DNA of 50,047 bases from a virus (Duplodnaviria > Caudoviricetes): IMG/VR virus record IMGVR_UViG_3300032893_000070, positions 1 to 50,047 of that record; one strand, 5' to 3'. A program made the position numbers and the translations under genes. Below the pieces are notes generated by a model, which saw nothing but the letters and a program-made list of their open reading frames with translations, had not been told where the DNA came from and searched no databases. Within the stretch, counting starts at the first letter, position 1. Each line of letters begins with the position of its first letter. Below are positions 15,142-15,750 of the stretch, one piece after another.

Positions 15142-15750
15142 GGGGTGGTCGAGAGGAAAGTCTTACTACGGCGTTGCCGCTTACAGACACCTTTCGACCC
15201 GCCCCACTCTTTGACAAGCCATTTCGAAGCGCCTGTACGGGTGGAACGGGTAGCCCGGTGAAGACTTCACCCTCACCGGTTGCGCTTGATCCCGAGTCGT
15301 ACAGGCGTCTCGACCCTCCACGGACAAAAGGAAATACCACGGAACGGGTCTCCGGCCTTCGGCGAGGCACACCGTGGAGGGTTTTTTCGGGGGTTAGGTG
15401 TAGTGGGAACACCGGGGGTCGCGCCCCTTTCTGCTGCTGGATCGGTAGGGGCGGCCTTACCGCTGGCTGTGCAGACGCGCAGGTTCGATTCCTGCACCCT
15501 CGACAAAGCGGCGTTGCCGCTCAGAGGCTCGGGCGCCGGGGCGTGAACAGCCACGGTTCTCCCGGGATCGGGTTATTCCCGGCGACCCGCGCCTCGTCTC
15601 TGGAAAGAGAAAGATTGACGGCAGAAGTAGGGGCGTCGGGAAAAACCAGGTGCGAACTGGCGACAGGGCACTACGCTAATACAATACCCGCCGCACTTCC
15701 CGCGTACTATGGGGCCGAAAGGCAAGTTAGGCGCGGGCTGCCGTCTTTTT
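15142..15750 (+). ncRNA. Array of six structured RNA domains
   Basis: Closing helices 15147-56/15190-99, 15229-39/15298-308, 15313-23/15372-82, the tRNA-like unit 15388-503, 15524-40/15578-95 and 15617-24/15738-45. No credible CDS in the interval. Confidence 0.7.
15388..15506 (+). tRNA. Atypical tRNA-Ala(CGC)-like RNA with extra-long variable arm
   Basis: Acceptor CGGGGGT/ACCCTCG with G3·U70 and A73; U8-A9; D arm GGTG-TAGTGGGAA-CACC; T-CGC-G anticodon loop; T arm GCAGG-TTCGATT-CCTGC; ends CAA rather than CCA. Confidence 0.7.

Follow-up and report, generated by a model that had tools for sequence, protein, structure and literature searches.

A conserved hairpin module with a candidate base-pairing seed heads a variable cargo slot in the early operon of an uncultured phage

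Why would a compact phage genome keep several hundred nucleotides with no credible protein-coding sequence in the middle of its early genes? The question is raised by IMG/VR virus record IMGVR_UViG_3300032893_000070 (Duplodnaviria; Caudoviricetes), a complete virus of 50,047 bp; this whole stretch is called the window below. The slot in question, 15092-15761, is flanked by a 60-aa membrane open reading frame (ORF; 14909-15091) upstream and a 415-aa MptE-like gene (15762-17009) downstream. An earlier reading, made from the sequence only, had seen there six self-closing RNA domains, A to F, forming one RNA system. All six sets of stems are present where that sequence-only reading had placed them, but the closest relative keeps only A, C and the pair made of domain E and a small hairpin, hp2, and the claim of a six-part RNA machine should be dropped. 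The answer we favour, with moderate confidence, is that the stretch forms a slot for variable cargo within an early/replication operon, with a conserved riboregulator module at its head.

A conserved module heads the slot

Relatives of the locus were collected by protein-anchored searches of IMG/VR. The sister phage (L003/G001) has flanking genes 85.7-87.3% identical in DNA and flanking proteins 88-90% identical, and three more distant relatives (L004/G002, L005/G003, L006/G004) have flanking proteins about 39-55% identical. Two further loci added by these searches, L069 and L076, lack domain A. Between the window and the sister phage the promoter, the tail behind it and hairpin A are nearly unchanged, and hairpin A itself is 100% identical although the flanking genes are 86-87% identical. 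Comparison thus brings out the first ~80 nt as a conserved unit, made of a 14-nt single-stranded candidate 5' seed and a scaffold hairpin. The sequence-only reading, which began at 15142, excluded both the conserved promoter and the 14-nt tail.

The predicted promoter, internal to the operon and of the sigma-70 type, lies on the + strand at 15088-15118, with TTGACA at 15088-15093, a 19-nt spacer and an extended -10 element, TGgTATCTT, at 15110-15118; its -35 element overlaps the stop codon of the 60-aa membrane ORF. It is the only match in the window to TTGACAC-N15-21-TATNNT, where 0.04 would be expected, and both CTTGACAC and TGnTAnnnT are preserved in all five phage records. A spacer of 19 nt is atypical, and a simple scan allowing spacers of 16-18 nt did not list this promoter. 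The spacer (15093-15113) is itself filled by an 8-bp hairpin, ACCGTAGG/CCTATGGT, in which both substitutions found in the sister phage turn A-U into G.U and which is absent in L004-L006; it might be the 3' hairpin of the upstream transcript.

The most informative part of the region is the conserved 5' tail, TTCCAACAGCATCC (15128-15141, + strand), 14 nt that are largely unpaired in folding predictions (mean unpaired probability 0.6). It begins 8-9 nt past the -10 element in five of five records, which places it at, or a few bases from, the predicted 5' end of the RNA. Hairpin A follows directly (15142-15205, + strand), a stack of helices P1-P4 capped by an apical CGGC-GUU-GCCG hairpin, with a folding z-score of -5.55 (per-domain z-scores, here and below, are against 200 dinucleotide shuffles each). 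Four distinct sequences fold independently into the same P1-P4 stack with the same apex. A covariance model, R1, built from four sequences of domain A finds a match in five of nine sources (L007, L008, L069 and L076 are negative) and in four of five related whole records, with one copy per genome at the same position. The alignment used for pair counts holds the five matches with E <=0.01 and excludes six weaker, partial ones (E 0.16-6.7). It has 23 pairs with 91.3% of cells paired, and 10 of the pairs are changed on both sides; none of 500 shuffles reaches these values, and slid controls fall to 39-51% paired. The covariation that the sequence-only reading had asked of homologues is therefore seen for hairpin A, and none is seen for B, D or F.

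Motif-pattern scans of the sequence collections turned up no further true copy of domain A. A tight pattern combining its 5' part and apex retrieves only two known relatives from IMG/VR. A pattern for its 3' part retrieves 35 metagenome and 20 genome stretches, of which only L022, on the same contig as L003, has the 5' motif; the others, considered as copies of domain A, look like chance matches in GC-rich DNA and were rejected. No description of the motif was found in literature searches made by topic, not by sequence. Domain A may already figure, without a function, among the 8,495 candidate RNAs catalogued from IMG/VR (PMC10690425).

Complementarity between the 5' tail and the leader of an SSB-like gene

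Comparison of the window with itself shows that 15128-15140, nearly the whole tail, is a perfect 13-nt complement of + strand 25114-25126, while other complementarities of the slot within the genome run to 11-12 nt and are at chance level. The proposed target site, GATGCTGTTGGAA, ends 5 nt upstream of the Shine-Dalgarno sequence (SD) GAGGAG (25132-25137) of a gene with its ATG at 25144. This gene (25144-25710, + strand) encodes a 188-aa OB-fold protein resembling single-stranded-DNA-binding proteins (SSB). Its AlphaFold2 model has a pLDDT of 82.9, and the best Foldseek matches in the PDB are PrgE and bacterial SSB OB-folds (E from 9.6e-5, the value for PrgE, upward; TM 0.42/0.56); from this modelled fold the protein is called SSB-like and not a member of the SSB family. 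Fifty homologues occur in the protein collection, 31 of which were aligned with the query; neither this protein nor the 415-aa protein has a match in INPHARED.

Four related records were examined whole. Three of them, G001, G003 and G004, have an orthologue of the SSB-like gene; G002, a partial contig, stops short of it, which leaves the window and these three as the genomes where pairing can be assessed. In all four, the genome's own tail has its complement in front of the SD of the orthologous gene, always 2-6 nt 5' of it, with the gene lying 7-11 kb downstream of the tail (about 10 kb in the window). The window's tail, UUCCAACAGCAUCC (tails are given 5' to 3'), faces a target with reverse complement UUCCAACAGCAUC and forms 13 of 13 bp at -22.0 kcal/mol. 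The corresponding pairs of tail and target reverse complement are UUCCGAACGCAUCC and UUCCGAAUGCAUC in G001 (12 of 13 bp, -17.1 kcal/mol), UUCCAACGGCCACC and UUCCCAACGGCAU in G003 (10 bp, one of them G.U, -17.4 kcal/mol), and UUCCAACAGCAUCG and UUCCAACAGCUAU in G004 (10 bp, -16.8 kcal/mol). Ranked among the roughly 4,700-5,000 overlapping sense-strand windows of each genome, the site comes first in the window and second in G001, G003 and G004.

The tail and its partner change together. The tail of G001 departs from that of the window at positions 5, 7 and 8, and its target departs from the window's at just the three positions that face these; A-U becomes G-C and C-G becomes A-U, two compensatory changes, and the third yields C.A. 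By a rough count, the coincidence of positions has a chance of 1 in 286 and the formation of at least two Watson-Crick pairs out of three a chance of about 0.26, together about 1e-3 for G001 taken alone. The cognate energies of the window and G001 (-22.0 and -17.1 kcal/mol) are better than those of the two cross pairs (-10.3 and -13.2 kcal/mol). Position 8 and its partner also change in G003, from A-U to G-C. A conserved seed whose complementarity is kept through compensatory changes is a mark of trans-acting base-pairing small RNAs, and at the level of sequence it is present here. It points to the head of the region, with its promoter, 5' seed and scaffold hairpin, as a base-pairing riboregulator, a function that the sequence-only reading had not foreseen.

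Duplex folding of the whole A-B-C RNA, or of the whole slot, against the leader gave only meaningless solutions with long loops. Some 40-60 nt ahead of the SSB-like gene there is a hairpin resembling a terminator, clear and with U-rich tails in G003 and G004 and weak in the window (25070-25100); the gene may stand just behind an attenuation point.

A proposed mechanism and the points against it

The mechanism we propose begins with the predicted promoter, from which transcription would start at about 15125. The RNA would open with the conserved ~80-nt unit, seed first and hairpin A behind it, and the seed would pair with the leader of the SSB-like mRNA at 25114-25126, directly 5' of its SD. 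The complementarity is observed; we infer that it acts as RNA rather than DNA, and in trans rather than within one long transcript. Pairing might lower or time translation of the SSB-like gene, a direction of effect that is a guess. In this phage the module would open a non-coding transcript of ~260 nt, A-B-C, which would end at terminator C. Read-through RNA would carry domain D, a likely handle for RNase P and RNase Z, followed by hp2, E, and F with its terminator-type end, and hp2 would presumably be bound by the same factor as the apex of A. Domains B, D and F would then be RNA cargo specific to this phage, in slots where sister phages carry small protein genes.

Several points weigh against this proposal. 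The pairing is seen in four genomes, two of them closely related, and each of G001, G003 and G004 has one other sense-strand site with a slightly better score. An inverted DNA repeat of 10-13 bp recognised by a protein would give the same pattern. Counted from the ATG, the duplex would span about -30 to -18, which is 5' of the region best documented for ribosome occlusion, and it is for this reason that the direction of regulation is a guess; folding of the four target leaders gave no common structure that sequesters the SD. In L003, L004 and L005 the module is the 5' untranslated region (UTR) of an mRNA, in L005 with no terminator after it, so a free-standing small RNA is not general. The promoter, the start site and the terminators are all predicted, and the promoter has the 19-nt spacer. 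Because the alignment behind the pair counts of hairpin A was fitted to the model, it is biased towards the structure; the independent folds of single sequences serve as the check. Finally, B and F are without relatives and have only thermodynamics behind them, and D has no sequence relatives, only shape look-alikes in L003 and L006, and a z-score of only -2.44.

Exchangeable cargo behind the module

The relatives split the array, and it is because of this that the stretch is read as a mosaic, recombination-prone cargo slot of which only the head is conserved. The sister phage keeps C and hp2+E in addition to A, and no more than these. Where the window has B, the sister phage has a 73-aa ORF with a ribosome-binding site (RBS) and a coding-type GC content at third codon positions (GC3) of 0.76; where the window has F, it has a 72-aa ORF, likewise with an RBS; and at the D slot it has unrelated sequence of similar shape. 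L004 and L005 have the RBS of unrelated genes within 10-30 nt of the promoter, tail and hairpin A; in L006 the same three elements lead into ~335 nt of non-coding sequence with other hairpins. The five slots were found to have no modules in common besides A, C and hp2+E, and the cargo ORFs of the relatives belong to no informative family. The flank of the slot is variable too: the 60-aa membrane ORF has no counterpart in the sister phage, where the promoter directly follows a 216-aa gene. The L006 slot gives an Rfam match of 20.2 bits (E 0.089, cut-off 41) to an mmgR/suhB-like RNA at 5024-5095, which is not usable; the same stretch has a single-stranded CCCUCCCU and then a terminator, just before a 417-aa gene.

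The window's own slot folds well throughout. For 15092-15761 (670 nt) the folding energy of the + strand is -316.6 kcal/mol, where shuffles average -271.4 (z -8.3, none of 20 as good), and that of the - strand is -293.3 kcal/mol (z -8.1). By domain, the + strand z-scores are -5.55 for A, -4.39 for B, -3.54 for C, -2.44 for D, -3.63 for hp2+E and -2.97 for F, so that all six do better than shuffles, a check which the sequence-only reading had itself proposed. Its preference for + strand RNA agrees with the energies (six of six domains are more stable on +, D most clearly at -59.1 vs -44.1 kcal/mol), with the share of G.U pairs (24 of 199 predicted), with substitutions in E that pair only as G.U, and with the U-runs after C and F; together these sequence features favour the + strand. 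One pairing in the global minimum-free-energy (MFE) structure, 15117-15123 with the RBS region at 15751-15757, was rejected: its 5' partner falls between the -10 element and the predicted start, and it is absent in L003. At the gathering cut-off Rfam 15 has no match in the whole window or in five related loci, and at E up to 10 only chance-level matches appear, the best being tRNA-Sec with 18 bits against a cut-off of 47; GOLLD, ROOL and C4 are covered by this negative only if Rfam 15 includes them. A blastn comparison of the whole stretch with INPHARED gave nothing.

Domain B (15226-15311, + strand) is a long irregular hairpin closed by GCGCCTGTACG/CGTACAGGCGT. It is an orphan: an exact 21-mer from it is absent from IMG/VR, and blastn finds no match among INPHARED phages. 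Domain F (15617-15750, + strand), also an orphan (an exact 20-mer is absent from IMG/VR), is multi-branched, with an 8-bp closing stem, GACGGCAG/CTGCCGTC, an inner CCCGCG/CGCGGG stem, a GAAA loop and a final U5 run that abuts the RBS of the 415-aa gene. Domain C (15312-15387, + strand) has a 12-bp GC-rich stem that closes a branched interior and is followed by six U; the outer stem and U-run are preserved in L003. It is a probable intrinsic terminator that would end the A-B-C transcript.

Behind D stands hp2 (15508-15520, + strand), GCGGC-GTT-GCCGC, a second copy of the apical hairpin of A with 13 nt in common. The exact 11-mer of this apical hairpin occurs twice in the window, both times inside the slot region, and hp2 is preserved in L003; the duplicated apex suggests a common binding factor. 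Domain E (15524-15595, + strand) is a long hairpin without a good U-run in the window, its z-score being that given jointly with hp2. The block made of hp2 and the 5' strand of E is identical with the sister phage at 40 of 40 nt, and each of the three stem substitutions that E has in L003 replaces C by U on the 3' strand, so that G-C becomes G.U, which keeps the pairing only in + strand RNA. In L003, E is followed by U7, and it reads as a terminator there and as a weaker one in the window. A GC-rich stem with a U-run, the signature of intrinsic terminators, is thus found in C, in F and in the sister phage's E, and all three look like ordinary terminator-type hairpins. A simple terminator scan listed neither C nor F, whose large interiors exceed its loop limit, and their efficiency is uncertain.

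Domain D (15388-15504, + strand) had been described as a tRNA-like unit. It does have an acceptor stem of 7 bp, a D-arm whose loop carries GG, and a canonical T-arm, GCAGG-TTCGATT-CCTGC, with the acceptor stem continuous with the 5-bp T-stem and 7-nt T-loop in both the ARAGORN drawing and the MFE fold, as in phage tRNAs. What the unit lacks is an ordinary 5-bp anticodon stem with 7-nt loop and a normal variable region; two hairpins, some 60 extra nt between the D- and T-arms, take the place of the anticodon arm, and no CCA is encoded. It also falls below the thresholds for tRNAs. ARAGORN by default calls no tRNA gene; only its intron option offers a tRNA-Pro, a contrived solution with a 25-nt "intron" at an unusual place, which we rejected. 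The Rfam tRNA model RF00005 gives 22.4 bits at 15389-15502 against a cut-off of 29, and tRNA-Sec gives the 18 bits mentioned above. In its T-arm and 3' acceptor strand D is identical to a phage tRNA-Gln: the last 23 nt of D equal the 3' end of tRNA-Gln(UUG) genes from unrelated large phages, called by ARAGORN in all eight matching IMG/VR loci, of which only L089 was aligned to D. A similar shape can be seen by eye in the D slot of L003, its T-arm fold lying within 0.3 kcal/mol of the MFE, with no match to the tRNA model; the D slot of L006 gives an Rfam tRNA score of 10.7 bits (E 1.1). This is weak evidence that a tRNA-shaped handle recurs in the D slots of L003 and L006. Many putative tRNA-like structures in phages were reported by a survey of IMG/VR (excerpt of PMC10690425).

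Alternative readings

The sequence-only reading had proposed a transcript that is punctuated by the tRNA-like unit and processed into several small RNAs (decoys, antitoxin or anti-defence RNAs). In this model RNase P and RNase Z would cut the transcript at D, and the stable small RNAs set free (B, D, hp2-E and F) would act in trans as decoys or anti-defence RNAs. Much of what is described above suits it: six of six units beat shuffles and do better on the + strand, D has its acceptor stem, D-arm and T-arm intact, acceptor and T-arm shapes recur at the same slot in L003 (by eye) and L006 (10.7 bits), and the places of RNA units are taken by small accessory ORFs in the sister phage. Yet B and F have no relatives and D only look-alikes in shape, none of the three shows covariation, and the unit at the D slot of L003 gives no match to the tRNA model. 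C, F and the E of L003 are more simply explained as terminators, no promoter is evident after C, and a defence-related context was not found. We consider this model improbable.

Somewhat more doubtful still is the idea that hairpin A is a processive antitermination element like put or nut, acting alone or with a factor on the CGGCGUUGCCG apex that is repeated as hp2. RNA polymerase would then read through C, E and F and keep the downstream replication genes expressed, which is compatible with pairing of the seed. Such an element would be a conserved, promoter-proximal structure, as A is, and stems of the terminator type with U-runs do stand within an operon whose later genes include those for Sak4, the polymerase and the primase; the U-run of F abuts the RBS of the next gene, so that a new promoter would not fit between them. 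Each of the two copies of the apical hairpin stands upstream of a hairpin of the terminator type, which resembles lambda nut, where a small conserved hairpin likewise occurs twice on the early transcript. Lambda nut consists of boxA and boxB and is bound by N. Here the loop is a GUU triloop, the window's boxA-like run is not kept in relatives, and no N- or Q-like protein was recognised among the early ORFs, where antiterminator proteins have no Pfam or PHROG match. HK022 put RNA is known to bind the beta' zinc-binding domain of RNA polymerase and to suppress termination in cis. The put RNAs, whose layout is taken from an excerpt of PMC9378689, also resemble A in being structured nascent RNAs of about 70 nt just past early promoters and before terminators. 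According to the same excerpt, put has two stem-loops and two copies, putL and putR, downstream of PL and PR, whereas A is one extended hairpin with a single full copy per genome. L005 has the module with no terminator before the next gene, the co-variation of the tail with a distant site is left unexplained, and long-stem terminators like E can resist antitermination in the conAn system (excerpt of PMC10325885).

We rate as equally doubtful the view that, apart from A, the stretch is leftover DNA without function: scars of recombination, what is left of a tRNA gene after decay, and stray terminators. In its favour, exchange at the slot is clearly frequent, no relative has B, D or F, and D fails the tRNA detectors. 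The z-scores of the units (-2.4 to -4.4) and their long perfect closing stems are not what such leftovers would be expected to show, however, and C and hp2+E are conserved above the coding flanks, with substitutions that preserve structure. It may be added that phage genomes this compact would rarely keep 400 nt of junk.

A fourth reading, which we think unlikely to a greater degree, is that the tail and its partner are two inverted copies of a protein-binding DNA site, such as one operator where the promoter starts and a second ahead of the SSB-like gene, with no RNA-RNA pairing at all. Identity between inverted copies looks the same as complementarity, and the two copies of G001 differ by one transition. 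Both sites nevertheless track RNA landmarks, 8-9 nt after the -10 element in one case and 2-6 nt before the SD in the other, and of the two copies in G003 one has an extra base, which an RNA duplex can accommodate as a G.U or a bulge. Three positions have changed in both copies between phages with flanking genes 86-87% identical, which would need a matching change in the specificity of the protein, and the adjacent hairpin A shows covariation of the RNA type.

That the 228-aa ORF at 15066-15752 is a real gene, as its open frame might suggest, deserves next to no credence, given a TTG start within the upstream gene and without an RBS, flat GC content over the codon positions (0.585/0.629/0.594), a codon score like that of out-of-frame sequence, a frame that is not preserved in L003, no Pfam or PHROG match, and no homologue in a search of proteins of 125-399 aa that yielded 992 word-sharing candidates. 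For comparison, the nine tabulated neighbour genes (eight long ones and the 60-aa membrane ORF) have GC3 of 0.64-0.86 and second-position GC of 0.37-0.48. The codon log-odds of the 228-aa ORF are -0.27, against +0.24 to +0.57 for the eight long genes, which were also in the training set, and +0.06 for the 60-aa ORF, which was outside it. The sequence-only reading was right that the stretch holds no credible coding sequence.

A bolder version of the riboregulator reading may also be put forward, as a long shot. In it a cassette of promoter, seed and scaffold tunes the SSB-like gene and also launches the RNA cargo, namely B, F and D as a fast-evolving tRNA mimic, with processing of the RNase P/Z type at D. 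The cargo would be the RNA counterpart of accessory or anti-defence proteins, for example a decoy for tRNA-targeting nucleases, and CGGCGUUGCCG would recruit an RNA-binding factor.

Comparison with known systems

Antisense RNA C4 of phages P1 and P7 is processed by RNase P, and its target sites adjoin an RBS. Citron and Schuster reportedly found, in 1990, that P1 and P7 differ by compensating changes in C4 RNA and its target. By analogy, C4 of P1, which is located upstream of its targets in the same operon, would be the nearest precedent for the module described here: in both cases a phage RNA lies upstream of the target in the same operon direction, and short complementarity controls, or here would control, a downstream gene. 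In the c4-icd-ant (immI) operon full repression of ant needs the C4 antisense RNA (excerpt of PMC8198154). The differences are that the seed here is a 5' tail where C4 uses loops, that the target is 7-11 kb away and not adjacent, that this phage looks lytic and has no immunity region, and that the target is an SSB-like gene. There is also no Rfam match here, which bears on C4 only if that family is included in Rfam 15.

The layout of the module is also that of the trans-acting small RNAs RybB and OmrA/B, which have a 5'-terminal seed, stem-loops and an intrinsic terminator. Here too the predicted order is promoter, 5' seed, structured body and terminator, the proposed pairing would take place near the start of translation, and conservation extends to both seed and target. 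Unlike those RNAs, the module is phage-borne, is the 5' UTR of an mRNA in three relatives, is not known to use a chaperone, and would pair 5' of the SD and not over it.

As an insert, the slot resembles a moron, the promoter-cargo-terminator insert of phage operons, in having its own predicted promoter, exchangeable cargo and a predicted terminator embedded in an operon. It differs in that the promoter comes with a conserved regulatory RNA and that the cargo in this phage is RNA, not protein. GOLLD and ROOL are long structured non-coding phage RNAs, often found near tRNAs. The sequence-only reading could match the array to neither, and the Rfam scan agrees, with no family match even under permissive settings up to E 10 (if Rfam 15 includes both); the slot is a mosaic of separately exchanged units and not one conserved fold.

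Genome context

The early/replication block occupies ~10.9-32 kb of the window on the + strand and encodes, by Pfam and PHROG assignments, a DNA methyltransferase, exonucleases, a Sak4-like annealase, a two-ORF DNA polymerase and a primase/helicase. Head and packaging genes lie on the - strand at both ends of the window. Pfam and PHROG scans recognised no integrase or repressor in the window, and the phage looks lytic-type, with the slot within the early/replication operon. The terminase matches only unrelated records, at <=29% identity, and so does not point to a host.

Upstream of the block, 10500-10960 is AT-rich, with short tandem "actac/ctact" repeats at ~10590-10640, then a hairpin resembling a strong terminator, with its T-run (10825-10842), and, where the + strand block begins, a promoter-like site (10924-10952); this stretch could be an origin or an early control region. 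The two DNA polymerase ORFs (26687-28534 and 28863-29735) match consecutive parts of one PHROG profile (476-979 and 981-1243). Between them lies a 111-aa ORF (28531-28866) of no known family, and the arrangement may reflect a mobile insert or a natural split. A 1,619-aa ORF on the - strand (32146-37005) has no PHROG match, and its neighbours of 552 and 643 aa are likewise without assignment.

Implications

To our knowledge there are few phage-encoded base-pairing RNAs with a known target, and most of those known come from temperate phages of model hosts. In the uncultured, lytic-type lineage described here, a candidate 5' seed and an SSB-like gene's leader form a pair that can be tested, and compensatory variants of it already exist in nature. 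Base pairing between the 5' tail of hairpin A and this leader is the one function of the region that has comparative support. RNA units and small protein genes swap in the same accessory slots, and this makes such slots a useful lead for finding functional phage RNAs.

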